Position numbers and translations under genes: made by a program. Positions 10,112-31,682 of a stretch of 31,682 nucleotides of DNA are shown here, piece after piece. The stretch is from a virus (Duplodnaviria; Caudoviricetes), in the IMG/VR virus record IMGVR_UViG_3300020594_000010, positions 1 to 31,682 of that record; one strand, written 5' to 3'. The notes beneath the pieces were generated by a model, which searched no databases, was not told where the DNA came from, and saw nothing but the letters and a program-made list of their open reading frames with translations. Position 1 is the stretch's first letter, and each line of letters opens with the position of its first letter.

Positions 10112-10113
10112 CG

Positions 10114-10553: not shown

Positions 10554-10558
10554 CCTGA

Positions 10559-12679: not shown

Positions 12680-12692
12680 AAGGCTTTCAGTA

Positions 12693-15959: not shown

Positions 15960-17019
15960 TCTTGGCTCCCGCATCCGCAATGCCTTCCGCGCCTATCTGC
16001 CGGGCACGGATGCGTTCATTGAGCCGAACAACCTGTCGATTGCCGGCAAGACGTTCACGCTGGTGATGTTCGAGGCCTATCAGCGCCTCGGTTTCCTCTA
16101 CAAGCAGATGTTCGCCTCGACCGCTGACGGCGATCATCTCGAATTCCGCCACGCTGCCGACTATGGCATCGTGCGCAAGCCGGCGACGGCCGCGTCGGGC
16201 CTCGTCACCCTCACGCAGGTGACGCCGGGCGCGCAGACGGTGGCTGCGGGCCTCGTTCTGGTGCGCGACGACGGCACGCTCTACGCGACGCTCGATTCAG
16301 CCGTCATGTCTGCTGGCACAGCGAGCGTCGCTGTGCGCGCGCAGATCGGCGGCGCCGCCACCAATGCGCCGGCTGGGTCGTCGCTCACCATCGACCAGAC
16401 GAGCGGCGTGCCGAACCTGCTGGATGTTGCGATCGTCGGGACGGGCGGTCTCGGCGGCGGCGCGGATGCGGAAGCCGACGAGGAATTGCGCGCGCGCGTG
16501 CTGCTGCGCAAACAGGCGCCGCCGCGCGGTGGCAATGCAGCCGATTATATCCGCTGGGCTCTGGACGTTCCGGGTTGCACCCGCGCCTTCGTCTCGCCCT
16601 TCGTGCCGAACGTCGATGGCGTCACGGTGTTTCCGCTGTTCGACGACACCCGCGTCAACGGCATTCCAAAGTCGGAAGATCTCGATGCGGTGCTGGCCTA
16701 TATTGAACCGCTGCGGCCGATCACCGCCGATGTCTTTGTCGCCGCGGCCACGCCATATCCGATCGACGTTGGCGTCAGCGGCCTCGTGCCCGACAATGCC
16801 CGCGTACGCGGCGCCATCCAGGCGACGTTGAACGCCATCATTCGCGATCGCTGTCCGCTGTCGACGGCGGCCGATCCTTTTGTCCTTCCCCGCGCGTGGA
16901 TCGACGAGGCGGTGTCGCGCGCCACCGGCGAGCAGCGCCACACGCTGACGGCGCCTTTGACCGATCTGACCATCCCGGCCGGCAATCTGCCGGTGCCGGG
17001 CGCGCTGACGTTCAGCTGA
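15931..17019 (+). CDS. Baseplate J-like wedge protein (Mu gp47)
   Basis: Probable GTG start 15931. TADGDHLE, GGADAEADEELRARVL and PRGGNAADYIRWAL motifs. Confidence 0.92.
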   Translation: MAFNIPSIPDLGSRIRNAFRAYLPGTDAFIEPNNLSIAGKTFTLVMFEAYQRLGFLYKQMFASTADGDHLEFRHAADYGIVRKPATAASGLVTLTQVTPGAQTVAAGLVLVRDDGTLYATLDSAVMSAGTASVAVRAQIGGAATNAPAGSSLTIDQTSGVPNLLDVAIVGTGGLGGGADAEADEELRARVLLRKQAPPRGGNAADYIRWALDVPGCTRAFVSPFVPNVDGVTVFPLFDDTRVNGIPKSEDLDAVLAYIEPLRPITADVFVAAATPYPIDVGVSGLVPDNARVRGAIQATLNAIIRDRCPLSTAADPFVLPRAWIDEAVSRATGEQRHTLTAPLTDLTIPAGNLPVPGALTFS

Positions 17020-17032
17020 TCGGGATTGCTGG

Positions 17033-17758
17033 ATGACAGTCTGTCCTGACATCGGCAACCCGATCGGGTTCGCCGAGGATGCGCTGGCGCGGCCGACCGG
17101 CGATGCTTTGCTGGAGCCGACCCTGGCGCAACTGCCACGCGGCGGCGCCTGGCGCACGGATGAAATGGCCGATGCCGATCATTCGTCGTTCCTGCATCGC
17201 TTCTGGCGTGCCGTCTGCGAGCCGCTGGCCGACCTCTACCGCGCCATGTGGGAAACAGCCCTGCAGGGCACCTCGTCGACGGTGACATGGTCTCTCGACG
17301 ACTGGGAAGTCGATTACGGCCTGCCGGAGACCTGCGGCGCCACGACGGACGATCCTACGCTGCGCCTGCGCGAGCTGCGCTGGAAGATCGCCGTGGAGCC
17401 GTCGGCCTCGATCGACCATTTCATCTGCCTCGCCGCCCATTGGGGTTACGACATCTGGATCGAGGAAATTCACTGGTTCGAATTCGGCCGATCGTCCTTC
17501 GACGGCGGAGATCCACCGGGCGGCCTCGTCGATGGTGGCTATCGCCCGGACTCGCTCGGCCCATCGACCTATCCGACGCGGCCGCCGAGGTGGTGGATCG
17601 TCCACATCACTGGCCTGACCGCGCCTGTGCATTTCGAATTCGGCTACTCGGCCTTTGGCCAGCGCCTGCTCGATTTCACCGAGGCCACCGATCTCGAATG
17701 CGCCATCCGCCGCGATGCGCCGGCGCACACGATTCCACTGTTCGATTACGGCTCTTAA
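17033..17758 (+). CDS. Baseplate wedge protein, Mu gp48 / YmfQ (DUF2313)-like
   Basis: LPRGGAW, LDDWEVDYGLPETC and LECAIRRDAPAHT motifs. Confidence 0.88.
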   Translation: MTVCPDIGNPIGFAEDALARPTGDALLEPTLAQLPRGGAWRTDEMADADHSSFLHRFWRAVCEPLADLYRAMWETALQGTSSTVTWSLDDWEVDYGLPETCGATTDDPTLRLRELRWKIAVEPSASIDHFICLAAHWGYDIWIEEIHWFEFGRSSFDGGDPPGGLVDGGYRPDSLGPSTYPTRPPRWWIVHITGLTAPVHFEFGYSAFGQRLLDFTEATDLECAIRRDAPAHTIPLFDYGS

Positions 17759-17776
17759 TTCTCCCGGGAGACCTGC

Positions 17777-18532
17777 ATGCAATATGTTCCGCCGATCGGC
17801 TCGGTCGATCCGAACGCACCCTATGTCGAGGGCAATCCTGGCACTGGCACGCGCGGTTCGTTTCCGCCCGCGCGGGGTTTCGAGGTTGTGCTGCGCGAGA
17901 TCGCCAATGCGATCACAGCGTCCGGCCAGACGCCTGACGATGCCGATCTGACGCAGCTCACGCAGGCCATTCAGCAGATGGCGCAAGCGCGTGGCGCGCC
18001 GGCAGGCTCGATCATGATGTTCGCCGGCGCCGCGGCGCCAGCCGGCTGGCTTCTGTGTTATGGTCAGGCAATCTCGCGCACAGATTATGCCGGCCTTTTC
18101 GCCGCGATCGGCATCACCTTCGGCGGCGGCGACGGCAGCACGACATTCAACCTTCCCGATCTCCGCGGCCGCGTCGGCGCCGGCAAGGATGACATGGGCG
18201 GGGTCGCGGCAAACCGGCTGACCAGCGGCACGATCACGGGCGGCGCCACGACGCTCGGCAAGGTTGGGGGCGAAGAAAAACACCAGCTCACGAAAGCGGA
18301 GCTGCCAAACTATAATCTGACCGTCACCGACCCAGGTCACGTCCATGGCGTTCAGCGCGCCAACATCGCTTCGTCCGGCGCCCAATACAGTCTGTTTGGC
18401 GCGGCGGGCAGCCAGCCGGATAGAAATACAGAGTCCGCGACGACCGGCATTTCTGTTGCCAGCGGCGGCAGCGACACGGCGCACACCAACGTGCAGCCGA
18501 CGATGATCCTCAATTTCATCATCCGCGTCTGA
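17777..18532 (+). CDS. Short tail fibre protein with phage tail-collar domain
   Basis: N-terminal baseplate-anchor motif (EIANAITASG..PD..DLTQL). Collar motif PAGSIMMFAG..APAGWLLCYG...GGDGSTTFNLPDLRGR. C-terminal NVQPTMILNFII. Confidence 0.9.
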   Translation: MQYVPPIGSVDPNAPYVEGNPGTGTRGSFPPARGFEVVLREIANAITASGQTPDDADLTQLTQAIQQMAQARGAPAGSIMMFAGAAAPAGWLLCYGQAISRTDYAGLFAAIGITFGGGDGSTTFNLPDLRGRVGAGKDDMGGVAANRLTSGTITGGATTLGKVGGEEKHQLTKAELPNYNLTVTDPGHVHGVQRANIASSGAQYSLFGAAGSQPDRNTESATTGISVASGGSDTAHTNVQPTMILNFIIRV

Positions 18533-18541
18533 GGCGTCGCT

Positions 18542-18886
18542 ATGGCTCTCCGGATGCTCGACACCGAAGACTGGCTGATCGCCGCGCGCCTTGCCTGGCG
18601 AGATCCAGATACTGGCATTCTCACGCCACTGCCGGTGAACGCAGCCGATCTCGCCATCTCGTTTTCGACGGCAGCGGGCGCGCCTGTCGGCGACGGCACG
18701 ATCGTCATCGCCGATAGCGAGCAGGGCAGGTTGTTCATCGCCGTCAAACGGGATGCCCGGGCACCGCTCGATTTTGGCGATGCGCAAACGCTGAGCGTCT
18801 TCGGCGACCTGATGGCTCGGGAGAGCGCCGTCGTCGATTGGCGGTCGCGCGGCCGCATCTCACTGACTGTTTTCAAGGGGCATTGA
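18542..18886 (+). CDS. Hypothetical tail-associated (adaptor-like) protein
   Basis: 114 aa with GAGG RBS, in the operon between the two fibre genes. Confidence 0.6.
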   Translation: MALRMLDTEDWLIAARLAWRDPDTGILTPLPVNAADLAISFSTAAGAPVGDGTIVIADSEQGRLFIAVKRDARAPLDFGDAQTLSVFGDLMARESAVVDWRSRGRISLTVFKGH

Positions 18887-18888
18887 TA

Positions 18889-21800
18889 ATGTCGATCGTT
18901 CTGGAAGTAAGCTCGCCGGGTCCGGAAGGCCGTGGGCTGAAGCCGGCCGGCGCCTATGACAGCACCAAGTCCTATGTCATGGACTCCCTGGTTCGCGTCG
19001 GAAATGTCCAGTGGCGCGCGCTGAAGGACGTTCCTGCCGGCAATGCGCCGGCAGAGAATTCTTATTGGACGCTGTTCTTCGACGGCGAGGCCGCGCAGGA
19101 TGCCGCCCAGGGGTTCGCGCAAGATGCCGAGGCGGCCCTGACGTCACTCCTGACCCAATACCTCGGCGATTTTGCCGACGATGCATCTGCCGCGGCGTTC
19201 GCCGCGGGGCACGACCCTGTGCTGACCCTTGGCCCGGGCTCGATGTACTTCAACACGGCGCTCGGCAAGCTCCGTATTTACAACGGCTCGGTCTGGGCGA
19301 GCTATGACGCCGCCGCCCAGGCGGTCTTGCTGGCGCTCCTGGCCGTCTATGTCGGCGCCCACGCGACCGATCCGACGGAAGATGCCGCCGGCAATGAGCT
19401 CATCACCGGCGCGCTTTATTTCAACACCCCGACGGGAAAGCTGCGCATCAGGGACGGTGCGCACTGGGTTGCCTATGATGCGGCCGCCCAGGCCGTGCTG
19501 GTCGACCTCGTCAGCCGTTATCTCGGCGCATCGGCGGCGGACCCGACGGTAGATCCCGCCGGCAATCCGCTTGTGCTTGGCGCATTGTATTTCCACAGTG
19601 GCACCGGCAAACTGCGCGTGTGGAACGGTGCGGCCTGGGTCCCTTATGATTTGGACGCGCAAGCTGCAGTTGCGGCTGCGACCGCCCAAGCCAATGCCGC
19701 CGCCGCCGCCGCCGCGTCGGCCTTAGGTTCGATCACGACCATAACTGACCTCCTTAATTCCATTTCTGCATTGGCGCTTCTGGTCGCTGCCTATGCGTCG
19801 GCCGCGCAAGTGTCGGCAGCTTCTGCCGCCGCCGTCAGCCAGACCAGCCTTGCCGGCGTGACGAAGACGACGGCTCTTTCAACCACCATCAATGGCCTGT
19901 ACGTCTACAACCCGCGCCTCGATAGCGACGGCGGCGCGTGGCGGCACAAGATCAAGAAAACGTCCTATTACAACGAGACGTTGAACACGGCGACGCGCGG
20001 CGCGTCCGCCGCTTTCCCGGCCTCGGCGCAGTGGTTCTTCTCGACCGGCCTGCTTTCCTGCAATGACAATTCGAACCCGGCGACCGCGTCGCTTTGGAAG
20101 TCGTGGGACTTTACCGGCTATTCCGTCGCGACGGTGCGGGCGAAGAATGGCTATGTCGTCATCGGATGTACCACGGCAAATGGCACGTTTGAATTTGATC
20201 TAATCCTTGACAAGGTCTTCAATCGCACGAGCGCTGGCTTCTTTGTTGCGGATCAGAACGTTGCCAACTTCAAGCCTAGTACCGCTGTTTGGACAAGCCT
20301 TGGGTCGACGCTCTCGGACGGCGCATTGGCCGGAACGACGAACATTGTCACGTCTATTGCGATCACTATTCAACCGCTCACGCCGCTGAATCCGAACCGC
20401 TGCAATTTGCCGAATCCGAACATCGTCATCGCGACCAATGCGCTCAGCTCTGTGCGGTCTGACAACCGGGTCGTTCAAGGCAATTCCGGCGCGAACGCGG
20501 CGTCTCTCGACTTCATCGAAAGTGGAAGCGAACGCATTCTTATGGCCGTCGGCAGCAGCCATCTTTATGTTTTCGACAATGGCTGTCAGCACTCGAATTT
20601 TGTGGCAACGAACGACTACCTTTCGACCAACGCGTGGTTCCCGCCTGTTGTGAATAGCGGGTGCGCTGGCGGAAAGCTCCTTGTCGCCTGCAATAACGGC
20701 GCGGGGCAGGCCATGCAGGGCATCAAGGTCGTTCAGCGTGACCGTTGGCTGCAGTCCAACAGCATGGCCGCGATCATCGATCATCGAATCAATGCGGGCT
20801 GGGTTCCTTCGACGGCGAAGTTCGCCTTCGCCGAAAGCAGCGCCGATCTGAGCAACATCGTCGGCCCGACGACAAACCTTGCGGTTAATCCTGACTTTGG
20901 CACTGGCGATCTGACGGGCTGGACAACGGTAAGCGGATCGGGTCCTAACGCTCCGTCTGTGAGCGGCAATGTTGCTTACCTGCCAGCGTCGGCCTTCACG
21001 GGGGGTAACTTTGCTGAGATCGGCCAGGCTATCTCAACTGTCATAGGCGCAACCTACCGCGTTACGGCAGACGCAGTAGGCGGCAACGTTAATCTGAGAG
21101 TTGGGACTGCCTCAGGCGGCAATAACGTGCTGCCCAATACGGCGTTGACGGCTGGCGTAGCGCGGGTTGTTCATTTTGTAGCTACAGCGACTACTTCATA
21201 TGTAGATTTCTATCCGGCTGCTCTGCAAGGCGGAACGACTGGTGTCGACAATATCAAGATAGAGCTAGTCATCGCTGACCGCACGAACCTCGGCAACTCC
21301 GCGAACATCGTTGGTACGATCACGCGCTTTGTCGTCGCGACCGGCGCGGAGTTGGCGGCATATGGCGGGTTCACGAACCTCACGAACTACATCGACGTGC
21401 CGTACAGCGCCGCTCTCGACTTCGGCACTGGTGACATGTGCGCCATGGCGTGGGTAAATCGCACTACCACTGCCAGCAATGACTCCGTGTTTTGCTATGG
21501 AACCGGATCTAATGACAACACTGGCGGGTATTCCCTGCGCATCACGGCAACGACGATTGTTTTCTATTACGGGAGCACTTCATTCCCGGTTTCATACGTT
21601 CTTCAGCCAGGCTGGAACCAAGTAGCGTGGATGATCAGATCGGGGTTTGTCGAGATATACGTAAACGGGAAGCGCATTGGTCGCGGTTCCGGTGGAGCGC
21701 CAAGCCTATCTAAGACGAACGCAACTCTTCGTATTGGTTCTGAGTCTAATAGAACGGCTGGCGGCGGCGTCATCGGCAATGGGTTTTTCAATGGAACGAT

Positions 21801-23130
21801 TGCGCTCCCGCGCGTCGCCGCAGCCGCTCCGACCGCAGACCAGATTGCCTACATGTACGACACCGAAAAGGCGATGTTCCAGCCCGGCGCGAAGTGCCTG
21901 CTTGTCGGCAACCCGGCGAACCTCACGACGATCGACATTCGCCAGCCCGACTACGACCCGCAAACGGATCGTTTCGCCTATCCGGTGTTCGGTACGGGCG
22001 TGTCGATCTTCGAGGGGCCACTGATCCGGACGGGGTTCTTTCAGGCGTCTACGGCAAGCGCCAATGTAGTGACTGGTTCTGGCGCGCCCGGGGCTTCGAT
22101 CTGGACTGGCGTGGTGTTCAACGGATCGTCTGGTTCGCTAACGAACCAAAGTAATAGCGGCTGGGGCAACGGTCAGTACATGCCGTTTACCGAAAACGGT
22201 TCGAATGGCGCTCACTACATCAGATCGCAAGCTAACTGGGCGTCTCCGGCTGGCGCGAGCGTTTACGCCCTAGCTATAAAACCGGGATCGCGAGGCGAAG
22301 TATTTGTTGAGTTCAATAATTTGCTCAGCAACATCTATTGCAATTTGAATGACGGCAGCACGCGCCTGCCTGTAAATTGTACGTCTCTTGGAAGCTTCAA
22401 ACTTCCAGATGGGGTATGGGTGTTCCAATTCAGTTTTACATCAAACGGTGTGGCAACTGTGTTGCGTGTGCAAGGATCGAACGGAACCACTATTTCATAC
22501 TTCGGCGACAATGGTGTGTCTGGCCCAGCGTTCTACATGGGCGACGCCGTTCTAATGTCCGGGAGCGCGGCGCTGTCTGGCTTCATCTACGGCCTGACGA
22601 ACAATAATAACGTCAGCCGCGTTTCATTCTCCGATGGCATCCTTGCTATGGGCGATGGGGCTGGAATCAATACGATGTTCCCGTCGCTCGCTCTGCGCGA
22701 TCGGCTTCTGACGCAAATGCCAACGCCGGCCTATGATCCGCTGCACGCTGTTATCTCGATCAGCACAACGAATGCCACGCCGACGAACCTCGTTCTGCCG
22801 GTGCCGGTGCTCGAAGGGCAGTCACGGATGTTCTATGCCACGGTTGGCGCGGTGCAATATGGGCCGACGAAGACCGAAAAGGCGCTCTATGCGCCAATGG
22901 CTCGCATTGATCGTGACGTCGGCGGCAATGCCGTGGCGGTTCCTGCATCGCAGCCTGCGACGGCTACGATCTCTGAAACGACCAGCACTATGGACGTTCA
23001 GATGGCAGCGCTTGGAAGCGGCGATATCGGCGCGATGCCGGTTCTATCCGTGACCGGGAGGGCGGCCACGACGCTGGTCTGGACGGCGCAGATCGAGGTT
23101 GGGGCTGACAACTTCCAGATGGCGGCATAG
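18889..23130 (+). CDS. Large tail fibre / receptor-binding protein (~1413 aa) with repeats, CBM-like and LamG-like domains
   Basis: ATG 18889 after AAGGGG. N-terminal AYD.TKSY....LV....W motif, three repeats, Ala-rich stalk, LDSDGGAWR motif, NLAVNPDFGTGDLTGW (CBM4/9-like) and LDFGTGDMCAMAWV...GWNQVA...IYVNG (LamG-like). Confidence 0.8.
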   Translation: MSIVLEVSSPGPEGRGLKPAGAYDSTKSYVMDSLVRVGNVQWRALKDVPAGNAPAENSYWTLFFDGEAAQDAAQGFAQDAEAALTSLLTQYLGDFADDASAAAFAAGHDPVLTLGPGSMYFNTALGKLRIYNGSVWASYDAAAQAVLLALLAVYVGAHATDPTEDAAGNELITGALYFNTPTGKLRIRDGAHWVAYDAAAQAVLVDLVSRYLGASAADPTVDPAGNPLVLGALYFHSGTGKLRVWNGAAWVPYDLDAQAAVAAATAQANAAAAAAASALGSITTITDLLNSISALALLVAAYASAAQVSAASAAAVSQTSLAGVTKTTALSTTINGLYVYNPRLDSDGGAWRHKIKKTSYYNETLNTATRGASAAFPASAQWFFSTGLLSCNDNSNPATASLWKSWDFTGYSVATVRAKNGYVVIGCTTANGTFEFDLILDKVFNRTSAGFFVADQNVANFKPSTAVWTSLGSTLSDGALAGTTNIVTSIAITIQPLTPLNPNRCNLPNPNIVIATNALSSVRSDNRVVQGNSGANAASLDFIESGSERILMAVGSSHLYVFDNGCQHSNFVATNDYLSTNAWFPPVVNSGCAGGKLLVACNNGAGQAMQGIKVVQRDRWLQSNSMAAIIDHRINAGWVPSTAKFAFAESSADLSNIVGPTTNLAVNPDFGTGDLTGWTTVSGSGPNAPSVSGNVAYLPASAFTGGNFAEIGQAISTVIGATYRVTADAVGGNVNLRVGTASGGNNVLPNTALTAGVARVVHFVATATTSYVDFYPAALQGGTTGVDNIKIELVIADRTNLGNSANIVGTITRFVVATGAELAAYGGFTNLTNYIDVPYSAALDFGTGDMCAMAWVNRTTTASNDSVFCYGTGSNDNTGGYSLRITATTIVFYYGSTSFPVSYVLQPGWNQVAWMIRSGFVEIYVNGKRIGRGSGGAPSLSKTNATLRIGSESNRTAGGGVIGNGFFNGTIALPRVAAAAPTADQIAYMYDTEKAMFQPGAKCLLVGNPANLTTIDIRQPDYDPQTDRFAYPVFGTGVSIFEGPLIRTGFFQASTASANVVTGSGAPGASIWTGVVFNGSSGSLTNQSNSGWGNGQYMPFTENGSNGAHYIRSQANWASPAGASVYALAIKPGSRGEVFVEFNNLLSNIYCNLNDGSTRLPVNCTSLGSFKLPDGVWVFQFSFTSNGVATVLRVQGSNGTTISYFGDNGVSGPAFYMGDAVLMSGSAALSGFIYGLTNNNNVSRVSFSDGILAMGDGAGINTMFPSLALRDRLLTQMPTPAYDPLHAVISISTTNATPTNLVLPVPVLEGQSRMFYATVGAVQYGPTKTEKALYAPMARIDRDVGGNAVAVPASQPATATISETTSTMDVQMAALGSGDIGAMPVLSVTGRAATTLVWTAQIEVGADNFQMAA
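19159..19665 (+). repeat. Three tandem ~57-63-aa repeats in the tail fibre N-terminal region
   Basis: Units start at 19159, 19348 and 19519. Shared pattern Y(L/V)G...G(A/S)(L/M)YF....GKLR(I/V).(N/D)G..W..YD..AQA. Confidence 0.85.
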
Positions 23131-23138: not shown

Positions 23139-23759
23139 ATGCTTGACGTGCTCTACAAGGACTTCGTTCGTCGCTGGACGCTGGTCGACGGCTTTCCTCA
23201 ATGCATCGAGGACGCGGTGCCCAGTTACTCAACTGTGGCAATGTCGGCGCTTCAGCGCAATGCGGCCATTCAAGCGGCTTTGACCGCTGTCGAGGCATTC
23301 GAGGCGGATCCTGAGAGTGAAGTGTCCGATGCTACCCGGGCGCTGGCGCTCTGGCGCACACCACGGCCCGAAGATGGCTTGGACGAACGACCTACCTGGG
23401 ACGCGGCTCGTGCGACCGTAGAGGCGGCGATCGATACCGCTGCGGCAATCCCACTCTCGGAAGATCCGCGGCCGCTGCCGCAGTCGGTCTCTGTCCGCCA
23501 GTTCGCCCAGGCGGCCGCCCAGCTCGATCTGATCACCCCCGACGAGGCGCTGGCCTGGGCGAAGCGTGAGGCCCTACCGGCCATCATGGAACAGATGCTG
23601 ACGGCCATCCCGGATCAATATCGCTGGGAAGGCCGGATCATGCTGGAGGGCGCGTCAGCCTTCGAGCCGGGCAATGAGTTCGTCACGATGTTCAGCGTCG
23701 TGGCCAATGTGCCAGATGACGTGCAGGGCCAGCTCTGGCGCCTTGCCGCCTCGCTTTGA
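23139..23759 (+). CDS. Putative tail fibre assembly/chaperone protein
   Basis: 206 aa with AGGAG RBS directly after the fibre gene. C-terminal PQSVSVRQFAQA...LWRLAASL pattern typical of fibre-adjacent proteins. Confidence 0.6.
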   Translation: MLDVLYKDFVRRWTLVDGFPQCIEDAVPSYSTVAMSALQRNAAIQAALTAVEAFEADPESEVSDATRALALWRTPRPEDGLDERPTWDAARATVEAAIDTAAAIPLSEDPRPLPQSVSVRQFAQAAAQLDLITPDEALAWAKREALPAIMEQMLTAIPDQYRWEGRIMLEGASAFEPGNEFVTMFSVVANVPDDVQGQLWRLAASL

Positions 23760-23895
23760 GAAGTTTCAGGCGGCGGTGAGGCCACTCTCCGCCGCCCGAA
23801 ACCCTCCCATGTCGCTGGTTCCCCGTGTCTCGCGTGAGAACCGGGGTCGACCGTAGTCCGGCGATCATTGCCGCCCCGTTAATCGAGTCTGATCC

Positions 23896-23918
23896 GCCGC
23901 CTCTGAGGCGGCTTTTTT
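23896..23918 (+). terminator. Rho-independent terminator between tail genes and lysis cassette
   Basis: GCCGCCT-ctg-AGGCGGC followed by TTTTTT. Confidence 0.8.
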
Positions 23919-23941
23919 ATTGCCCGAAAATTGGAGAGCTC

Positions 23942-24172
23942 ATGCGCTTCGAACTGATCGAAGACTGGCGGCGCGTGCTTAAGCGCGCCTGGTCGATCCG
24001 CCTCATCTTGCTCGCCGGCCTGCTGTCCGGGGCAGAAGTCCTCATTCCGATCTTCACCGACGATCCGCCGCTGCCGCGAGGCGTGTTCGGCGCGCTGTCG
24101 TTCTTCGTCACCGCGGGCGCGTTCATCGCCCGCATTCTCGCGCAGAAGGATGAGCCCAATGGCGACCAGTAG
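23942..24172 (+). CDS. Putative holin (two transmembrane segments)
   Basis: GGAGAG RBS, 76 aa. LIEDWRRVLKRAWSIRL N-terminus, two hydrophobic segments. Overlaps the endolysin start. Confidence 0.75.
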   Translation: MRFELIEDWRRVLKRAWSIRLILLAGLLSGAEVLIPIFTDDPPLPRGVFGALSFFVTAGAFIARILAQKDEPNGDQ

Positions 24173-24626
24173 ATTGAAAAAGAGCGCCTATGCAGCCGGC
24201 TTGGCGACGGCGCTCGTGACGAGCGTCGAAGGCGTGCGCCAGGTGGCGTATCCTGATCCAGCGACGCGCGGCGAACCGTGGACGGTCTGCATGGGTCATA
24301 CCGGCGGCGTGAAACCCGGCGACCGCTACAGCCTCGACGAATGCAAGGCGATGCTGGTCCGCGATCTCGAAACCTATGCACTGGGGATCGAGCGTTGCGT
24401 TCGCGTACAGATGCCGGACCCGCGCTATGTGGCGTTGGTATCCTTTGCCTACAACGTCGGCGTCGGCGCTGCCTGCAAATCGAGCGTGGTCCGCCTCATC
24501 AATGCGGGCCAGACGGCGGCCGGCTGCAATGCACTGATGGGCTGGAACAAGGCGGCCGGCATCACTTTTCCCGGTCTGACGCGCCGACGTGAGCGCGAAC
24601 GCGCCATGTGCCTACAGCCGTCGTGA
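24159..24626 (+). CDS. Endolysin, GH24 lysozyme with probable N-terminal SAR segment
   Basis: EG...AYPD.....WTVCMGHT catalytic E/D/T pattern, ALVSFAYNVG and GLTRRRERE. Weakly hydrophobic N-terminus after KK. ATG 24159 follows AAGGA. Confidence 0.92.
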   Translation: MATSRLKKSAYAAGLATALVTSVEGVRQVAYPDPATRGEPWTVCMGHTGGVKPGDRYSLDECKAMLVRDLETYALGIERCVRVQMPDPRYVALVSFAYNVGVGAACKSSVVRLINAGQTAAGCNALMGWNKAAGITFPGLTRRRERERAMCLQPS

Positions 24627-24638
24627 TCGGAAGCGACC

Positions 24639-25079
24639 ATGCTCGACTGGACCCAGTGGTTTCAGAATATTGGCCACATCTTCACCGGCTGGACGATCGG
24701 CGCGCTGCTGATCGCTGGCGGTGCAGCGGCATGGTTTCGCGTGCCGGTCTTCGGCCATTACATCGGTGCGGCCGGCATTGCCGCCGGCGCTGCGCTGATC
24801 TGGGGCGCCGTCCAATACGATGCCGCCGCCGGTAATTGCAAGGAAGCGATCGTCCGCGCGCAGCTCGCCAGCAGCCAGGCGCGGGTCACCGAGCTCGAGC
24901 GCCAGATCGATGATGGCAAAAAGATCCTAGCTGACGCGGCCGACCGCGTGGCGAAACTCGCCGTCGAAACCAACGCCGCCAACAAAAAGGCACAGGACTA
25001 TGAGGATCAGCTTTCCAAGGCCAGCAAGAATGACGATTGCCCTCTCGACGATGATCTGTGGAAGCGCCTGCGCCCCTGA
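24639..25079 (+). CDS. Putative i-spanin (Rz-like)
   Basis: N-terminal hydrophobic segments, coiled-coil middle and C-terminal Cys (DDCPLDD). Follows the endolysin. Confidence 0.75.
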   Translation: MLDWTQWFQNIGHIFTGWTIGALLIAGGAAAWFRVPVFGHYIGAAGIAAGAALIWGAVQYDAAAGNCKEAIVRAQLASSQARVTELERQIDDGKKILADAADRVAKLAVETNAANKKAQDYEDQLSKASKNDDCPLDDDLWKRLRP

Positions 25080-25296
25080 TCCTGAGAAGCTCGATCCCGC
25101 CTCGCCGAAAGAGCAGCGCGTGGCCTTGCCGGCAGCGCCTGCCGACTTCGGCAAGCCGGTGCCGATCCCGGCCCGCACGAAGGATGCCCGCGTCTGGGCC
25201 GTGCGCGCCCGCGGCGCGATCGACACCGCCAATGGCCGACTGAAGAACGATGGCCAGTTCTATCGGGACGTGCAGCGAGATTTCGGCAGGCCGTGA
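25000..25296 (+). CDS. Putative o-spanin lipoprotein (Rz1-like), overlapping the i-spanin 3' end
   Basis: Basic n-region, hydrophobic stretch and lipobox-like GSA-C (Cys24). Pro-rich linker. 80-nt overlap in the +1 frame. Confidence 0.7.
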   Translation: MRISFPRPARMTIALSTMICGSACAPDPEKLDPASPKEQRVALPAAPADFGKPVPIPARTKDARVWAVRARGAIDTANGRLKNDGQFYRDVQRDFGRP

Positions 25297-25325
25297 TGCA
25301 CAGGGCCGGTGGCGGGGAGGGAATA

Positions 25326-25643
25326 GTGCCAAACACCTTGGTTCTGGATCAGGCTGACGTGGAACGAATGATATCGGCTGCGGCCAACCGCGCAGCGAAA
25401 GAGGTTGCCGAACAGGCCCTCGGCCGCGACGACGTCGACGAGATGATTGAGCACGGCATCGGCCGGTTCCTGGAGCGTGTCGGCATCGACGATATCCCCG
25501 AGTTCCGTAAGGACCTAACGGCCATGCGCGCCGCGCGGGAGACCCGCGAAGCGCTCATCAGTCATGGCCTGAGGGCGGTCGTCACCATCCTCGTCGGCGG
25601 CATCGTCACCGCCGTCTGGCTCGCGATCAAGGGGGCAAAATGA
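25326..25643 (+). CDS. Membrane protein with C-terminal TM helix (lysis-module associated)
   Basis: GGGAGG RBS before GTG 25326 (alternative ATG 25293). Helical N-terminus and TM AVVTILVGGIVTAVWLAI. Confidence 0.65.
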   Translation: MPNTLVLDQADVERMISAAANRAAKEVAEQALGRDDVDEMIEHGIGRFLERVGIDDIPEFRKDLTAMRAARETREALISHGLRAVVTILVGGIVTAVWLAIKGAK

Positions 25644-26119
25644 TGCTGTCAGCCAAGAGCGCTGCTGCCGTCTTCGTGTGGTCGATCGCAGGTATCATCG
25701 GCAGCGGCCTGTTCCTCTACGCTACGCCCTGGCTGGAGGGTCGCCTGGCGCCGATCCTGGTCGACCAGAGCGTCGAGATCGAGCCGGGCGATAGGACGCC
25801 GGGCAAGATGTGTTGGACGTGGAAATGGAACAAGGTCCGCTACGGCCGCCCGGTGTCGACATCCTGGTCGATATCGGTTGAAGGTACCTCGATCGCGTTT
25901 CCGGCAATCACGGAGCGCGAGCGCGACGGATCGATCGTCCGCGATACCAAGCCGGCGCCACTGGGGCCGGGGCAGAACGACCTCTGCGCCAGGATCCCGG
26001 CCGATCTCGACAAGACGACCGGACTGACCATTCGCGGCCAGATCAACTACAGCGTGCCGCACGGCCTATGGACGCTCTGGCAGGAACTGCCGGTGGTGAA
26101 GGTGCCGCCGCTTCCGTAG
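25640..26119 (+). CDS. N-terminally anchored hypothetical protein with beta-rich extracytoplasmic domain
   Basis: 159 aa, ATGA-coupled to the previous gene. N-terminal TM and two Cys. Confidence 0.65.
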   Translation: MMLSAKSAAAVFVWSIAGIIGSGLFLYATPWLEGRLAPILVDQSVEIEPGDRTPGKMCWTWKWNKVRYGRPVSTSWSISVEGTSIAFPAITERERDGSIVRDTKPAPLGPGQNDLCARIPADLDKTTGLTIRGQINYSVPHGLWTLWQELPVVKVPPLP

Positions 26120-26260
26120 CCAGGGAACTCTAGAGGCGCCGCTGCATTACCCTGGCTCACGACAGCCCCCACCCTCTTTGCTGTCGTGGCTTTCGCCCAT
26201 CTCTTGGGCGTTCCTTATGACTTGGCCCCGCTACCGGTTTGACCGGGGCGGGGCTTTTTT
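26118..26260 (+). ncRNA. Candidate structured RNA / 3' element: four consecutive hairpins, two with pyrimidine-rich loops
   Basis: Stems 26118-26125/26150-26157, 26158-26166/26180-26188, 26194-26199/26205-26210, and terminator 26225-26254. Confidence 0.4.
26225..26260 (+). terminator. Rho-independent terminator ending the late operon
   Basis: GCCCCGC..CCGGT-ttg-ACCGG.GCGGGGC followed by TTTTTT. Confidence 0.85.
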
Positions 26261-26329
26261 GTCGTACCACGGGGGCGGCAGCTATGTTTGAGGGTATCTC
26301 GCGCCGATCATAAAATGAGTTTCGTAGTG

Positions 26330-26388
26330 GCAATTAATTGCTTAATATCTGTCTATTATCCACAGCTTAACGTATTGTATGTTATACT
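26330..26388 (+). promoter_or_regulatory. AT-rich promoter region of the cargo operon: palindrome, DnaA box, CtrA-like box, extended -10
   Basis: GCAATTAATTGC (26330-26341); TTATCCACA (26356-26364); TTAT-N7-TTAAC (26356-26371); TGtTATACT (26380-26388). Confidence 0.55.
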
Positions 26389-26465
26389 GACGCTGTCTAG
26401 AGTTTAAATATGCTACGGTCGCCAATCACCGATACGAAGCGCTAGCGGCTGTCTGGGGAAGAGTT

Positions 26466-27347
26466 TTGTCCGTTACTTTGAACATAAATCCAATATCCGG
26501 ATTTGACTCCGCATCTACGAAGGTAAAACCATTTTTAAGGTGGGCTGGTAGCAAGAGGAAGTTATTGAATCGGTTGAGCCCATTTTGGTCCGAAAGACAT
26601 ACGGTGTACGTAGAGCCTTTTGCTGGCTCGGCATGCTTGTTCTTTGAACTTGCGCCTGCCGCCGCCGTTCTCGGAGATACCAATTCAGAATTGATTGAAT
26701 TGTTCGAAGTCGTCCGCGACGACCCCTCTAATTTGCACGAGCGCTTATGTCGGCTCGAACGCGATTTGGATACCTACAAACATTGGCGTAGCCTTGATCC
26801 GAGTTCGATGGACCCTAATACTCGAGCTCTGAGGTTTCTATATCTCAATCGGAATTGCTTCAACGGCATATATCGCACAAATGCCAAGGGGCAATTTAAC
26901 GTCCCTATGGGAAGCAAGCTGGCCGCAAATATCCAGCGAGAGGAATTGATACGATGTTCCGAAATGCTCAAGAACGTGAAATTAATTCGCGGCGACTTCA
27001 TGGATACGCTGCAGCATGTGGGCATGAATAATTTTGTCTACCTAGATCCGCCATATGCCGTTAGTTCGCGCCGAATTTTTAAAGAGTACGGCAAGAAGAT
27101 ATTTGACGTCGCAGATATCGAGCGCTTTTCTGCGGGCTTGAATAACATCCATAAAAAGAAGGCAGACTTTCTCGTTTCATATGCGGATTGCAAAGAGGCA
27201 AGGGCGCTCGCGAAAGACTGGAATTCTTTTCGTTTTTCTGTCCGCCGCAATGTTGCGGGCTTCGCGGGAGCGAGGCGGAATGCTTATGAATGGCTGATAA
27301 CAAACTGCCCCATAGATAGACCGGAGCTGTTGTCATGGCCGAATTAA
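26466..27347 (+). CDS. dam: DNA adenine methyltransferase, Dam (D12, alpha-group) family
   Basis: KPFLRWAGSK (motif X), YVEPFAGS (motif I), LYLNRNCFNGIYRTN.KGQFNVP (Dam recognition hairpin), YLDPPY (motif IV). TTG start, exact start uncertain. Confidence 0.92.
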   Translation: MSVTLNINPISGFDSASTKVKPFLRWAGSKRKLLNRLSPFWSERHTVYVEPFAGSACLFFELAPAAAVLGDTNSELIELFEVVRDDPSNLHERLCRLERDLDTYKHWRSLDPSSMDPNTRALRFLYLNRNCFNGIYRTNAKGQFNVPMGSKLAANIQREELIRCSEMLKNVKLIRGDFMDTLQHVGMNNFVYLDPPYAVSSRRIFKEYGKKIFDVADIERFSAGLNNIHKKKADFLVSYADCKEARALAKDWNSFRFSVRRNVAGFAGARRNAYEWLITNCPIDRPELLSWPN

Positions 27348-28372
27348 AGCCCATTCAACATACGCCACCTGTGCCAGCGGGCTCTCTACGCCAACTTGGG
27401 ATTGATGATATCAAACCGAGTGCCAACAATCCGCGGCACTTGTTCGATGAATCTCCCCTTCAAGAGCTGCGAAAGAATATTGCTGAGCATGGAGTGTTGG
27501 TTCCCATCACAGTTTATCGTGCCCCGGGGCAGACTAAGTTCTCAATTCTAGATGGAGAACGTCGATACCGATGCGTCGTAGATCTTACACAGTCAGGTCA
27601 TCTAGGTCCTGACAATTTGCCCCTGTTATTGCCTGCAAATATCGTTGAGCCTCCAACGAAAATTGCTGGGTTGCTATATATGTTTTCGATCCACAACTTT
27701 CGCGAAGGTTGGGAGCTCATGCCAACGGCGCTCAGCCTCAAGAGCGTTATGGAAACTCTAGACGAAACCGATAACAAGGCGCTTTCCAAGCTAACGGGAT
27801 TGAGCGAGCCTCAAATTGAGAGATGCAAGAAACTTATAGATCTTCCTGAGCGCTTTCAGCAGCTTTCCTTAGATCCTGATCCTAGAACGCGAATTCCATC
27901 TAACTTTTGGATCGAATGCTCCCCTGTCTTGGACTTTGCAGTGGCAAGCATACCATCGCTGAGAGAACTGGGGCGTGAAGGGGCGACCGACAAGTTAGTT
28001 GAGAAGTATCGCAACAAGAAAATACGCAGCGTGATTCATTTCCGCCGAATCATGGATGCTTTCGTCTTCAGTGAGGAAGACGCGGATCTGCGAGCAAGAC
28101 TATTGCAGCGCGTCGAGGAATACTTCTTGGATCCGACCTTGGAAACGAGGACTGTCTTCGATGAATTCACAGTGGATGCAAAGCGGACTCGGGATGCGCT
28201 CGAGGAATGCAATGAATTTGTGGCGCGGCTCAATCGGCTCAAATTAAAGTACGTTGCAGATGACGCGGCCCGCGCGAATCTTAGAAGTGCTCTGTCTCAG
28301 GTAGCTGCTCTGTGCGCGTCCATTGACGAAATGCTTAAGGGCAGTGACGATCCAGATATTATTAGTGAATGA
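27335..28372 (+). CDS. ParB/Srx-like N-terminal domain protein with HTH and C-terminal helical region
   Basis: NNPR (box I), IAEHGVLVPITV, LDGERRYR (box II arginine patch), HTH-like NKALSKLTGLSEPQIERC. Overlaps dam by 13 nt. Confidence 0.85.
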   Translation: MAELKPIQHTPPVPAGSLRQLGIDDIKPSANNPRHLFDESPLQELRKNIAEHGVLVPITVYRAPGQTKFSILDGERRYRCVVDLTQSGHLGPDNLPLLLPANIVEPPTKIAGLLYMFSIHNFREGWELMPTALSLKSVMETLDETDNKALSKLTGLSEPQIERCKKLIDLPERFQQLSLDPDPRTRIPSNFWIECSPVLDFAVASIPSLRELGREGATDKLVEKYRNKKIRSVIHFRRIMDAFVFSEEDADLRARLLQRVEEYFLDPTLETRTVFDEFTVDAKRTRDALEECNEFVARLNRLKLKYVADDAARANLRSALSQVAALCASIDEMLKGSDDPDIISE

Positions 28373-29202
28373 AGATGCTTTCATATTTGGATTGCTTCCG
28401 AGCAGCTGCGCGTTTTCCGGGTTATCATCCTCGCCCGGTGACCTTTTGGACATTGGTTAAATGGCTTCGACAATTCGAAAAGAAAGATCGTAAGCGAATT
28501 CTTCGTTTGTTGGACGAGGTTGTCTACTTTCCCGAAGCGCAAGTTAAGCAGTTGCTGATACAACAGAACGCAGCGCTTATGACTATGTTGCATGACGCGG
28601 GACTTCCTCCTGAAAATCTTATATATGTGCAAGTTGATGACGCTGGGAGCAGCAGTCCCGTGATGCTTAACATTCTCCGGGATTCCATGGGCCTTGAGCA
28701 ACGTGGCTGCCATCTCCTCGATGCAAAAGACGTCCTAGGCATAGTGCAGCGGACCAACGCACTCGGACGAGGCGCTGTGATTTACGTCGATGACTTTGTT
28801 GGAAGTGGTTCGCAACTCTGCACCGCGAGAGATTTTGTTGCAAAAAATATAGGCGGAACATTTTCGGAATTCGCGCTAGCTGCAGCAATATGTGAGGAAG
28901 GTCTCGCTCGGTTAGCTACGAGAGGAGTTGAGGCATATTCCGGCCATCTGCACAGCAAGGTGGACCGGCCGCTACATGCGAACTCGCCTCTTTTTGATCG
29001 AGAAACTAAGAGACGTCTTATTGAAATCTGTAATACGATTGATCCAAATCTCGGGCTTGGTTTTCTCGATGGTGCGGTGATGGTTGTATTGTACCGCGGT
29101 CCTCCGGATAACGTACCGATTATCTTTCGAGGAAGTGCCGATCAAATACCATACATAGGCCTCTTCCCGCGCTATGCGGATCTTCCTTTGCCTGAATTGT
29201 AA
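28369..29202 (+). CDS. Phosphoribosyltransferase-like protein (PRTase-CE type)
   Basis: PRPP-binding loop VIYVDDFVGSGSQ. N-terminal WLRQF and C-terminal LGF...PDN...LFPR motifs typical of PRTase-CE-like proteins. ATGA overlap with the ParB gene. Confidence 0.8.
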   Translation: MKMLSYLDCFRAAARFPGYHPRPVTFWTLVKWLRQFEKKDRKRILRLLDEVVYFPEAQVKQLLIQQNAALMTMLHDAGLPPENLIYVQVDDAGSSSPVMLNILRDSMGLEQRGCHLLDAKDVLGIVQRTNALGRGAVIYVDDFVGSGSQLCTARDFVAKNIGGTFSEFALAAAICEEGLARLATRGVEAYSGHLHSKVDRPLHANSPLFDRETKRRLIEICNTIDPNLGLGFLDGAVMVVLYRGPPDNVPIIFRGSADQIPYIGLFPRYADLPLPEL

Positions 29203-29419
29203 CTGCTGGTTAGAGGCGGGCGTTTCGCGATAGCGTGTGTTCGGAAGATGCTGTTCCAGCGCCGCCGTTGCGCTCACTTCCAATTGTATCCATGGACATG
29301 TATGGATCACTTCTTTTCCCGCTGCACCTGCTGAGCCGGCTTATCCTCCCGTAACGCCTCAAACGACGTCTGCCGCAGCACAGCGACGGACTCTCACGCT
29401 TGCCCGTAAAGCCGGCGGC

Positions 29420-30667
29420 TTACTTCCACGGCAGGTAAATCAGATCCGCAGCCAGCGGCATTCCTTCCATCAGCATATCCGCCCATTCGTAGGCGAGCTC
29501 TTTCCGGCGCTGCAGGTGCTCCGCCCGGTTGTAGGCGGCCTGCACCTTGTCTTTCGGCACGTGCGCCAGCATGAAATCGATCACCGGCGCGTCGTGCCGA
29601 TTCTTTTCGTTCATCACGGTCGAGAAGGTGGTGCGCCAACCATGCGGCACGTGGCGGCCCTTGTACTTGGCGCGTTTCAGCGCTCGACCGAGCGCATTTT
29701 CGGTCATCGGCTCGTGCGCGTTCCGATAGTTGGGGAAGCATAGCGGCCCTCGGCCAGTGAGCCCTAGCAGCGCCTCGAGGGTCTCTATGGCCTGAGGCGC
29801 AAGCGGTACCAGGTGGTCGCGCGCTTCATCCTGCTTCTGGCGCACCCGGAGCTTCATCCGAGCGGCCGAAATGTACCAGATCGGATCGTCCTGGCCGATC
29901 AGCTCCCGGACCTCGTGCCATGGCGTCGACGCAAGGGTGCCCGGCCGCACGACCGTCAAGGCGAGCAGCCGCATCGCCAGGCGAGTGACCGGATGCGCCG
30001 GAATATCGTCCATCCTCAGCAGTATCTCGCGGCCTTCTTTCAGGGTCAGCACGGCCGGCTGCTTCCCTTTGACGACGGGTGCCAGGGCCTTCTGCACGAT
30101 CGCGGCCGGATCGTGGGCGCAATAGCTGCTGCCGATGCCGTAGACGAAGACGGCGCTGATGCGCTGGCGCACCCGGTGCCCGGCCTCGATCGCGCCGCGG
30201 GCCTGAATCGGTTTCAGCACATTCAGCACCATGGGTGGGGTGATATCAGGCAGGGGCAGGGAGCCGAGGGTAGGAAATACGTCCTTCTCGAGCGACCTGA
30301 TGACGTCGTCTGCGTGGATCGGGCTCCACGTCGGCACCTGCTTGGCGTGCCATTCCCGCGCCGCGATCTCGAAGGTCATGTCATTCGCCACCTTGCCGGC
30401 GGCCTTCTCCTTCTTGCGCTCAACCGCCGGGTCTCTCCCGACGCGCAGGTGCTGCTTGGCGGCGTCGCGCTCGCTGCGCGCGTCGGCTAGGGACAGGTCC
30501 GGATATTTGCCGAGCGACAGCAGCTTTTCCTTGCCGTCGAATTCGTATCTCATGCGCCAGAGCTTGCCGCCGGCGGGGCTGACAAAGAGGTGCAGCCCTC
30601 CAGCGTCGGTGAGTTTGTAGCCTTTGTCTTTCTTTTTGGCGACGCGCACCTGGGTGTCGGTCAGCAA
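29420..30667 (-). CDS. int: Tyrosine integrase, P4-like, with N-terminal arm-binding domain
   Basis: MLTD..V...K...YKLTDAGGLHL...GGKLWRMRY...LGKYPDLSLADAR N-terminus. Catalytic R (VRPG), HGWR, LAH and AAYNR. Adjacent to the tRNA 3' end. Confidence 0.96.
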   Translation of the reverse strand: MLTDTQVRVAKKKDKGYKLTDAGGLHLFVSPAGGKLWRMRYEFDGKEKLLSLGKYPDLSLADARSERDAAKQHLRVGRDPAVERKKEKAAGKVANDMTFEIAAREWHAKQVPTWSPIHADDVIRSLEKDVFPTLGSLPLPDITPPMVLNVLKPIQARGAIEAGHRVRQRISAVFVYGIGSSYCAHDPAAIVQKALAPVVKGKQPAVLTLKEGREILLRMDDIPAHPVTRLAMRLLALTVVRPGTLASTPWHEVRELIGQDDPIWYISAARMKLRVRQKQDEARDHLVPLAPQAIETLEALLGLTGRGPLCFPNYRNAHEPMTENALGRALKRAKYKGRHVPHGWRTTFSTVMNEKNRHDAPVIDFMLAHVPKDKVQAAYNRAEHLQRRKELAYEWADMLMEGMPLAADLIYLPWK

Positions 30668-30686
30668 TGTTTTCTCCGGTCAAAAA

Positions 30687-30727
30687 TACCCGGTTTCGCC
30701 CAAATCTGTACCCGGAAATATACCCGG
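30687..30727. repeat. Three TACCCGG direct repeats, probable integrase arm-type binding sites
   Basis: Copies at 30687-30693, 30709-30715 and 30721-30727, between the int start and the tRNA. Resemble the GGGTA-type arm repeats seen beside P4-family integrases. Confidence 0.65.
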
Positions 30728-30841
30728 TTCTGGTGCGGCTGCGGGCGAAAGAGGGCGAAGGAACGAGAAAGAACTTTGAGGGAGAAAACCCTGCAACACA
30801 AGGGTTTCGCGCACGTCAGGGAAGGTCAGTGAAAGAATGGA

Positions 30842-30935
30842 TGGCGGAGACGGAGGGATTCGAACCCTCGATAGGGCTTTACAACCCTATAACGGTTTAG
30901 CAAACCGCCGCCTTCAGCCTCTCGGCCACATCTCC
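30842..30935 (-). tRNA. tRNA-Ser (anticodon GCT), CCA encoded; prophage attachment site
   Basis: Reverse complement GGAGATGTGGCCGAGAGGCTGAAGGCGGCGGTTTGCTAAACCGT...GGTTCGAATCCCTCCGTCTCCGCCA. Long variable arm, GTTCGAA T-loop, G73 discriminator. Confidence 0.97.
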
Positions 30936-31002
30936 GGCGTCCGGCGCGAAACAGACAGTTCGGCGCGGAACGGACGGGGTCCGACCCGCCCGATACGGCT
31001 CC

Positions 31003-31031
31003 CATATGCATGACATGGATTTGGTTTGCAA
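31003..31031 (-). promoter_or_regulatory. Putative sigma70 promoter of tRNA-Ser
   Basis: Minus strand cTTGCAA-17 nt-CATATG, about 70 nt upstream of the tRNA 5' end. Confidence 0.4.
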
Positions 31032-31243
31032 GCCGCGCGGTGGCGGGATTCGCAGCGGATTTGCGATGTGGGCCTAAAATTCTGTTCCAAAGCCGGTTTT
31101 GGCGGGCGAGGCGGGGAGTAGCCGGTATATTTCGGTTGGAATCCGAGCCTTGCGCGATAGGATCGTCCGGTGGCGGGATTCATTTGCCCGACTTATGGGC
31201 GCGATATCCGGTGTGGACGTTCGCCGGCAAAGCAGGGGTAAAG

Positions 31244-31682
31244 ATGTCGCAACCGGGCAAATGGTGGATCGGGCTGCTGCCGCTGGCGATCGTCTGGATC
31301 GCCGCCAACTGGTTCAAGACCGAGGCCGTCGAGCGCGATATCGGAAGCAGGGTCGGTGCGGCCCTGGAGCGTAGCGCTGGTGCGGTCGAGACACCGCAAA
31401 TCGCGGTTGCGGGGCGTGACATCACGGTCTCCGGTGTGGTTCTGGACCAGGCGGCGCGGGAGCGTCTGTCCGACACGATCCTGGCGGAAGCCGGGTCGCG
31501 GCTCGTCAATGCCACAGCCGTCAGTTTTCCGCCTGTGGCCCGGCCCTATACGTTCGCGGCGAAGCGCGTCGGCAACGACCTGGTGCTGACCGGCAGCGTT
31601 CCCTCGCCAATGGTGCGGAGCGCTGTTGTCGACGCCGCCAAAGCCGCGGCCGGCGCCGGCAAGGTGATCGACCAATTGACCA
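31244..31682 (+). CDS. Host membrane-anchored BON-domain / OmpA-family protein (3'-truncated)
   Basis: Read manually; absent from the ORF track because it has no stop in the window. MSQPGKWWIGLLPLAIVWIAANW (TM)...VAGRDITVSG...PYTFAAKRVGNDLVLTGSVPS. AGGGG RBS. Confidence 0.7.
   Translation, partial: MSQPGKWWIGLLPLAIVWIAANWFKTEAVERDIGSRVGAALERSAGAVETPQIAVAGRDITVSGVVLDQAARERLSDTILAEAGSRLVNATAVSFPPVARPYTFAAKRVGNDLVLTGSVPSPMVRSAVVDAAKAAAGAGKVIDQLT

Follow-up and report, generated by a model that had tools for sequence, protein, structure and literature searches.

The stretch of DNA analyzed here (31,682 nt; IMG/VR virus record IMGVR_UViG_3300020594_000010), hereafter the window, is a phage record of 31.7 kb that is about 55% complete and encodes a terminase, portal, capsid, sheath, endolysin, and integrase. 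After its lysis genes, and before a convergent integrase gene adjoining tRNA-Ser(GCT), lie three plus-strand genes that form a compact 2.7-kb operon and encode a DNA adenine methyltransferase, a ParB/Noc/KorB-type clamp protein, and a member of the PRTase-CE family with a type I phosphoribosyltransferase (PRTase) fold (Table 1). This cassette is real and widespread, and likely a form of methylase-linked abortive defense. The methylase and ParB genes overlap by 13 nt and the ParB and PRTase genes by 4 nt (ATGA). An earlier reading made from the letters alone (the sequence-only reading) had described these overlaps and the convergence on the integrase, and both hold. It had also noted that no restriction endonuclease (REase), ParA, or reverse transcriptase (RT) gene adjoins the cassette, and none lies next to it in the window.

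Table 1. Features of the cassette and its surroundings in the window
Feature	Position	Strand	Details
D12/Dam-class DNA adenine methyltransferase (gene 1)	26466..27347	+	293 aa, TTG start; PF02086 (1e-43)
ParB/Noc/KorB-type clamp (gene 2)	27335..28372	+	345 aa; ParB_N (1e-12)
PRTase-CE, type I PRTase fold (gene 3)	28369..29202	+	277 aa; PF24390 (1e-28)
Intrinsic terminator	26224..26260	+	hairpin -26.3 kcal/mol plus U-run; z -3.7; equally good shuffles 0/200
Candidate sigma-70 promoter, extended -10 (TG-n-TATACT)	26359..26388	+	-10 ends at 26388
Prophage tyrosine integrase	29420..30667	-	context gene, convergent with the cassette
tRNA-Ser(GCT)	30842..30935	-	prophage end

The methylase scores above the TIGR00571 cut-off, and its motifs (EPFAGS, FNGIYRTN, NVP, and DPPY) are intact. 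Among 115 methylases compared, 112 belong to the RWAGSK subfamily, and the DPPY-type motif reads DPPY in 43, DPPF in 70, and DPPR in 2. The nearest solved structures are DpnM (2DPM, 1e-36, the best match) and Dam, and a DpnM/Dam-like recognition loop is kept. The target is likely GATC-like. PADLOC models of type II or orphan methylases matched at 2e-65, far better than the PD-Lambda-5_B model (2e-18).

The second protein has the full layout of a ParB clamp: a nucleotide-binding N-domain (with NPR, DGERR, and MFSIHNFR..W), a helix-turn-helix (HTH; residues ~147-168), a helical DNA-binding domain, and a C-terminal coiled coil. Its model has a predicted local distance difference test score (pLDDT) of 87, and the best Foldseek matches are Noc, ParB, and KorB (E 1e-8 to 1e-6). 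The fold is thus that of a ParB/Noc/KorB clamp, and the kinship with the ParB modules of GmrSD, SspE, and DndB suggested by the sequence-only reading was not borne out. In canonical ParB proteins, the Gln of QPR, the Glu of GERR, and the Glu of ENLQRE have catalytic roles in CTP hydrolysis. Relative to B. subtilis Spo0J, the window protein has NPR for QPR (Gln to Asn32) and His120 for the Glu of ENLQRE, and it keeps the Glu of GERR (E75). NPR, G74, R77, H120, and W126 are invariant in 69/69 ParBs, down to about 25% identity. Of the label "ParB-like CTPase/HTH" given by the earlier reading, the HTH part therefore stands, whereas the CTPase part is unproven because two hydrolysis-linked positions are substituted; these residues suggest nucleotide binding with altered or absent hydrolysis. 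Of 107 near-clade ParBs, 105 retain the HTH residues Q160 and R163. The sole intact near-clade ParB lacking both, at locus L052, accompanies a methylase of another class. We predict that the ParB acts as a sensor or switch and as the partner of the gene 3 product.

The third protein matches PF24390 with 101 bits against a curated cut-off of 27 and covers positions 3-253 of the 253-position profile. Its model (pLDDT 95) has a type I PRTase core, and the fold matches salvage enzymes. The loop for phosphoribosyl pyrophosphate (PRPP), VIYVDDFVGSGSQ (YVDDFVGSGSQ), is present, as is a G231-x14-PDNVP motif. The latter agrees with Gx14PNNxP, a motif described in the PRTase effectors of III-A retrons (PMC12746101). 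PADLOC matched the protein to PRTase_III-A (8e-17), and there was a weak match to DS32_1 (1e-5, far under the cut-off). We predict that this PRTase is a toxic effector, as the sequence-only reading had proposed. When activated, the PRTase of Retron-Eco11 reduces PRPP levels by about 50% (PMC12746101), and by analogy the gene 3 protein may deplete PRPP.

ParB relatives number at least 1002 at E <= 1e-10, and the 120 listed are 63-100% identical and nearly all full length. An alignment-seeded scan of species genomes yielded 59 loci, 57 with a subfamily-level match, and ParB-anchored loci span at least twelve bacterial phyla. At the ParB-anchored genome loci, the methylase lies upstream in 56/57 and the PRTase downstream in 53 of the 55 testable, with the full triad in 52/55. 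Anchoring on the PRTase instead (79 metagenome loci, from the best 80 of 324 hits) placed a ParB upstream in 70/72 and a methylase in 52/54. All these loci are related to each other, and the counts are hence not independent events. Excluded from them were L059, L060, and L064-L066 (N-domain-only ParB matches, none with a Dam or PRTase), the duplicates L001/L062/L063, and L068, which is the window's own DNA. Gaps between cassette genes are nearly all <50 nt (37 loci measured), no conserved fourth gene was found among 642 open reading frames (ORFs) called at these loci, and the flanking genes do not recur. The GC content of the cassette is below that of its flanks in 76/84 loci. The cassette was present in 7/301, 1/401, 3/401, and 12/401 sampled genomes, with the centre genome counted each time (about 0.2-3%). 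The three genes form a conserved unit, complete in itself and patchy in its distribution.

Most copies are chromosomal. We found no match in 72,556 plasmid records and, by protein search, none in cultured phages; among viral contigs, only 3 distinct ones besides the window carry a close triad. Of the 21 matches in viral contigs from a degenerate DNA scan, 1 was a true ParB, one already in the set, and most matches of a broad viral scan were ordinary phage ParBs. The prophage cargo slot emphasized by the sequence-only reading is therefore real in the window but incidental, one landing place among many.

We compared the 136 nearest of 384 neighbor ORFs with control ORFs from arbitrary regions of the genomes matched by the searches. 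PADLOC matches were found for 24/136 neighbors versus 10/126 controls (p 0.026). After generic kinase, ankyrin, ABC, helicase, and similar matches were removed, a filter that was a judgement call, 17 remained versus at most 3 (p 0.002). The neighbors include type II, IIG, III, and IV restriction genes, AbiEi, HEC-01, DrmD, SoFic, integrases, and a relaxase. At L023 (3517-5040), a gene for a fused HAD hydrolase and Hydrolase-TM lies directly upstream of the methylase and is co-oriented with it. This gene is probably type II Metis-like, and both systems could use the same N6-methyladenine (m6A) mark. At L005 (1857-4909) and L032 (1496-4544), a calcineurin-like phosphoesterase (with a winged HTH in L032) and a 620-aa partner are divergent from the cassette.

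A profile search recovered many full-length distant ParBs, which in genomes are set between a methylase and an effector gene. A divergent PRTase-CE follows the distant ParB at L151 and L153, and L229 is a ParB-PRTase pair behind an insertion sequence (IS). After 8 distinct same-clade ParBs (L155, L162, L227, L233-L236, and L083) stands an unrelated 275-290-aa protein with an invariant RNxxxH (7/7 aligned). This protein has a faint HEPN_Apea match in 1/7 (E 0.045) and REase_AHJR/HepT-like look-alikes, which serve as leads; from its sequence it is a probable REase fold plus HEPN. No relationship between the HEPN-type and PRTase effectors was detected with hhalign (probability 0.1). At L083 (112-5834), one Dam-type methylase lies between two divergent ParB-effector pairs, one with PRTase-CE (+) and one with a REase/HEPN-like protein (-), the latter followed by an Mrr-N-like gene. 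At L261 (3779-8307), a ParB and REase/HEPN-like pair is nested in an operon of a DpnM-like methylase, a DpnII nuclease, and a second methylase. The methylase is convergent and downstream at L139 and L052, and methylase classes are interchangeable (L052, L162, L238, and L261). These arrangements (L083, L139, L052, and L261) suggest that the methylase can act at a distance. Given the effector swap, the shared methylase of L083, and the DpnII nesting of L261, we describe the family as a methylase, a ParB sensor, and a swappable toxin. Neither a tree of the ParBs (31 rows, bootstrap not settled) nor one of the methylases (25 rows, quick mode) fixes the order of the swaps, and L083, a locus holding two ParBs, is mislabeled in both. 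At L263 (2555-6459), an N6/N4-class methylase and a same-clade distant ParB are accompanied by a 548-aa protein, possibly another effector, whose 318-aa N-terminal part has no Pfam or PADLOC match.

Rearranged copies of the cassette were also found. At L079 (1-1193; the same DNA as L081), a deletion runs from mid-methylase through ParB into the PRTase N-terminus, with a 255-aa PRTase frame still open and a methylase remnant 69% identical to the window's. L086 carries an insertion, and its PRTase frame is open or nearly complete after ParB loss or splitting. At L237/L239 (G1169:C41, ~884 kb and ~1044 kb), parB is split by IS elements into halves 160 kb apart, and the methylase and PRTase frames are intact. 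Retention of the PRTase frame after loss or splitting of ParB weakly favors ParB as an activator, not an antitoxin.

To model the complex, we used all three cassette proteins as chains. The ParB-PRTase pair scored 0.67, compared with 0.00 for the best of 3 controls; the score mark was reached by 116/157 solved and 2/215 mismatched pairs, a calibration that is only roughly applicable here. At least 56% of contacts recur between model runs, the partner pLDDT is at least 85, and no solved PRTase-CE structure usable as a modeling template was found. With a substitute for ParB and the methylase left in, the score of the PRTase was 0.00; the absence of confident methylase-PRTase contacts amounts to no support rather than counter-evidence. 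On ParB, the modeled interface involves both the N-domain and the DNA-binding domain, and it is remote from the PRPP loop, which would be expected of an allosteric contact. The model supports binding of ParB to the PRTase. Two correlations, both confounded by shared ancestry, accompany it: the ParB contact loop (61-70) has 9 residues in 94/94 near-clade PRTase-linked and 7-8 in 8/8 HEPN-linked ParBs, and identity covariation across 59 triads is 0.82 for ParB-PRTase, 0.58 for ParB-methylase, and 0.59 for PRTase-methylase. The tight unit is the ParB with its effector; the methylase is movable, shareable, and replaceable.

Conservation of the triad, a defense-type context, and structural modeling of the complexes were among the checks that the sequence-only reading had called for; the first two came out in its favor, and the model supports ParB-PRTase binding. 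A defense role, by whatever trigger, is quite likely. In the mechanism we propose, the methylase would mark host DNA as self, and the ParB clamp would carry the PRTase through the modeled interface. The clamp, gated by CTP, would close where phage DNA carries unmethylated target sites, which is the least certain step. Closure would switch on the PRTase, which by analogy with Retron-Eco11 would deplete PRPP, stalling the infected cell. The whole would resemble restriction-modification with a nucleotide-gated clamp and a swappable toxin in place of the nuclease. We put forward the complete chain of such a methylation-gated abortive system, including clamp closure on unmethylated DNA, as our preferred though tentative reading, plausible and somewhat short of probable. 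To the same tentative degree, a segregation-type CTP sliding clamp may have been repurposed as an immune sensor of methylation state, telling self from non-self by way of the methylase of the cassette, having lost its hydrolytic reset and allosterically firing either a PRTase-CE or a REase-HEPN effector.

Several observations weigh against this proposal, beginning with the shared ancestry that confounds the two correlations. The complex was modeled with one ParB chain where a dimer is expected, and the PRTase face of the interface shows no conservation beyond that of the protein overall (0.55 vs 0.59). The L269 methylase is 62% identical to the window's, and its ParB only 34%. No parS-like site, operator, or shared palindrome was found upstream of homologous cassettes, and GATC is not avoided within cassettes (1719 observed vs 1684 expected). 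L162 has another methylase class, yet its HTH resembles that of Dam-linked relatives, and it therefore cuts against the pairing of HTH and methylase hinted at by L052. In the wider family, the HTH helix is variable and the nucleotide pocket invariant, a combination equally compatible with a small-molecule ligand and with DNA. Specific defense matches occur at 13/58 loci, and most cassettes have no recognized defense neighbor. Finally, at L051 (7845-8748), a DpnI-like nuclease gene follows the cassette and, with an HNH gene, is convergent with it, an awkward arrangement if the methylase marks GATC.

A small-molecule ligand would suit a fairly unlikely alternative in which the methylase seeds host m6A, phage degradation of the DNA frees the methylated nucleotide, the ParB pocket binds it, and the PRTase or HEPN toxin fires. 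Metis senses N6-methyl-dAMP, and operons of a type III Metis that encode a methylase themselves have been proposed, according to the accessible part of the preprint (bioRxiv 10.1101/2025.11.05.686725), which mentions neither ParB nor PRTase. H120 and W126, invariant in 69/69 ParBs in place of canonical ENLQREDL residues, would fit this alternative, as would the interchangeable methylase classes (L052, L162, L238, and L261) and the L023 gene abutting the cassette, a Hydrolase/Hydrolase-TM gene that we infer to be equivalent to type II Metis. Against it, ParB retains its HTH, DNA-binding domain, and coiled coil in full, the HTH hardly varies within the close clade, and the cassette has no MisB-like detoxifying phosphatase. 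The ParB-toxin pair might instead guard the methylase or its mark and fire on phage anti-restriction by a DNA mimic, a cleaving enzyme for S-adenosylmethionine, or a methylase inhibitor, which we judge unlikely. PARIS and PrrC are precedents for guarding. The ParB-HEPN pair between the DpnII nuclease and second methylase of L261 and other pairs beside type I/III restriction-modification and Mrr genes fit this arrangement, and PD-lambda-5 is described, in the accessible text, as a compacted restriction-modification and abortive infection system (PMC9519451). Most cassettes, however, have a methylase but no nuclease to guard, and the methylase covaries with ParB less than the PRTase does and can occupy a separate transcription unit.

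An addiction module, in which methylation or ParB silences the PRTase, cells that lose the cassette die, and defense is secondary or absent, would account for the tight coupling, horizontal spread, and toxin-type third gene, and ShosTA is a PRTase toxin-antitoxin pair as far as the accessible text describes it (PMC11961720). We consider it distinctly unlikely, given the absence of matches in the 72,556 plasmid records and the PRTase frames, possibly untranscribed, kept at L079, L086, and L237/L239 after ParB loss or splitting. Very improbable is a role outside defense, either with the ParB acting in partition or at the nucleoid alongside a PRTase for salvage and an orphan methylase, or with the operon modifying phage DNA. 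The ParB fold is nearest Noc/ParB, the PRTase fold matches salvage enzymes, and the window is a prophage, all of which such a role would explain. It would leave aside that there is no ParA and no conserved fourth gene, that a gene for a HEPN-type protein can take the place of the third gene, that only about 0.2-3% of sampled genomes have the cassette, and that the cassette is not beside the terminase, with a close triad on only 3 other distinct viral contigs.

The window also shows how the cassette is set apart from its surroundings. The terminator upstream is the end of the late/lysis operon and insulates the cassette, as the sequence-only reading held. Of its further claim that the cassette has its own promoter, an extended -10 candidate is present; the promoter scan found 4 sites vs 3.4 expected, a count at chance level, and the site remains a candidate. 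The -10-like word TATGATGA is enriched in 18/94 upstream regions of homologous cassettes (shuffle maximum 7-10) and is a -10 box, not an operator. A word overlapping the candidate -35, TTATCCACA at 26356-26364, resembles a DnaA box; we treated it as chance because it is present in only 2/94 upstream regions, the window's own and one other, and is not conserved in homologues. The cassette genes have a GC content of 0.47-0.49 versus 0.64-0.65 in structural, lysis, and integrase genes, and 0.45-0.53 at third codon positions versus 0.75-0.85 in the portal, capsid, sheath, lysin, and integrase genes. The contrast seen by the sequence-only reading thus stands, whereas its 70-75% for structural genes was too high: they average 0.65, and 28% of their 60-nt lines reach at least 70%.

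The tRNA gene, the only match of an Rfam scan of the window, is likely the integration site of the prophage. L068 is identical to positions 23369-31682 of the window and continues beyond them into host genes; GC and the best lysin and integrase matches indicate that the host is probably an alphaproteobacterium. No second att copy was found in the 31.7-kb fragment, repeats across 26100-31100 are at chance level, and a palindrome-avoidance analysis revealed no methylase target. In one RNA library (X7; one run, strandless, contigs only), five exact-match contigs lie in dam/parB, one of them across the dam-parB junction, and a contig begins at 26420. Window positions 1-18000 had only ~20-nt matches, and the tail/lysis genes, integrase, and PRTase gene were uncovered; missing cover was not counted as evidence. 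The five contigs are a weak hint of transcription of the cassette in the lysogen. A 1430-aa tail-fiber-like gene (18838-23130) has lower GC in its distal half (0.52-0.58), suggesting an exchanged receptor-binding region.

PADLOC yields component-level matches only, and we agree with the sequence-only reading that no named system matches the cassette. Nicastro et al. in 2023 reportedly named PRTase-CE and covered ParB-containing systems, by computation only. We give equal weight to that study already listing this triad neighborhood and to its not doing so. In the literature searched, we found no description of a methylase-ParB-PRTase triad, and the accessible parts of PMC12839542, PMC10853773, and PMC13712802 do not mention it.

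Among known systems, type III-A retrons have in common with the cassette the effector family, PRPP loop, and Gx14PNNxP-type motif; in contrast, the cassette has no RT (in the neighbors scanned), conserved upstream RNA, or fused winged HTH, and its predicted regulator is a ParB clamp. A PRTase-fold toxin or essential component also occurs in ShosTA, PsyrTA, DS-32, and Ophion, whose partners, in the accessible parts of their descriptions, are the DNA-binding antitoxin ShosA, NADAR, or radical SAM plus PHP proteins rather than a ParB and a methylase. The ParB/Spo0J, Noc, and KorB clamps (PDB 6SDK, 7NFU, and 8QA9) share the domain layout and GERR box; the cassette protein differs in NPR for QPR, His for the ENLQRE Glu, and a predicted PRTase partner. 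Unlike parABS, the cassette has no conserved ParA, parS site found, or plasmid match. Unlike type II restriction-modification, it has no cognate REase in the window or conserved at homologous loci; the complete DpnII operon of L261 belongs to a HEPN-variant locus, not to a PRTase cassette. Type III Metis, as described in the accessible part of the preprint, likewise joins a methylase to a toxic nucleotide-metabolism effector without a nuclease in an abortive logic (bioRxiv 10.1101/2025.11.05.686725), whereas MisA, MisB, and MisC are absent from the cassette, as is any calcineurin-like or 3TM protein.

The closest tested system is PD-lambda-5, which the cassette most resembles in how it works, yet the cassette is not a member. 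PD-lambda-5 is prophage-borne and broadly anti-phage, with an adenine methylase and no ordinary REase, and has been called "compacted RM+Abi" in the accessible text (PMC9519451; Vassallo et al. 2022). Both have an adjacent D12-class adenine methylase (PD-Lambda-5_B at 2e-18, with the generic MTase_II model scoring higher). The match of the window ParB to PD-Lambda-5_A, however, has E 0.057 and covers only residues 35-94 of 345, the HEPN-linked L162 ParB has no match to it, and PD-lambda-5 consists of two genes, whereas a third gene, encoding a separate PRTase-CE effector, is present here in 53/55 testable loci. Because of the PD-lambda-5 and type III Metis precedents, pairing a methylase with a toxic effector is not entirely new. 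If our proposal is true, the cassette would represent a restriction-like form of immunity without a nuclease, new as a class and spread over many phyla. Its sensor, linking DNA methylation to a toxic effector, would be a ParB/Noc-type clamp, a kind of protein hitherto associated with segregation and gene silencing. The effector swap, shared-methylase locus, and modeled interface of this compact operon offer direct handles for testing it. The cassette thereby bears on a question shared with PD-lambda-5 and the proposed type III Metis systems, namely how protection from phage can arise from a methylase that has no nuclease.

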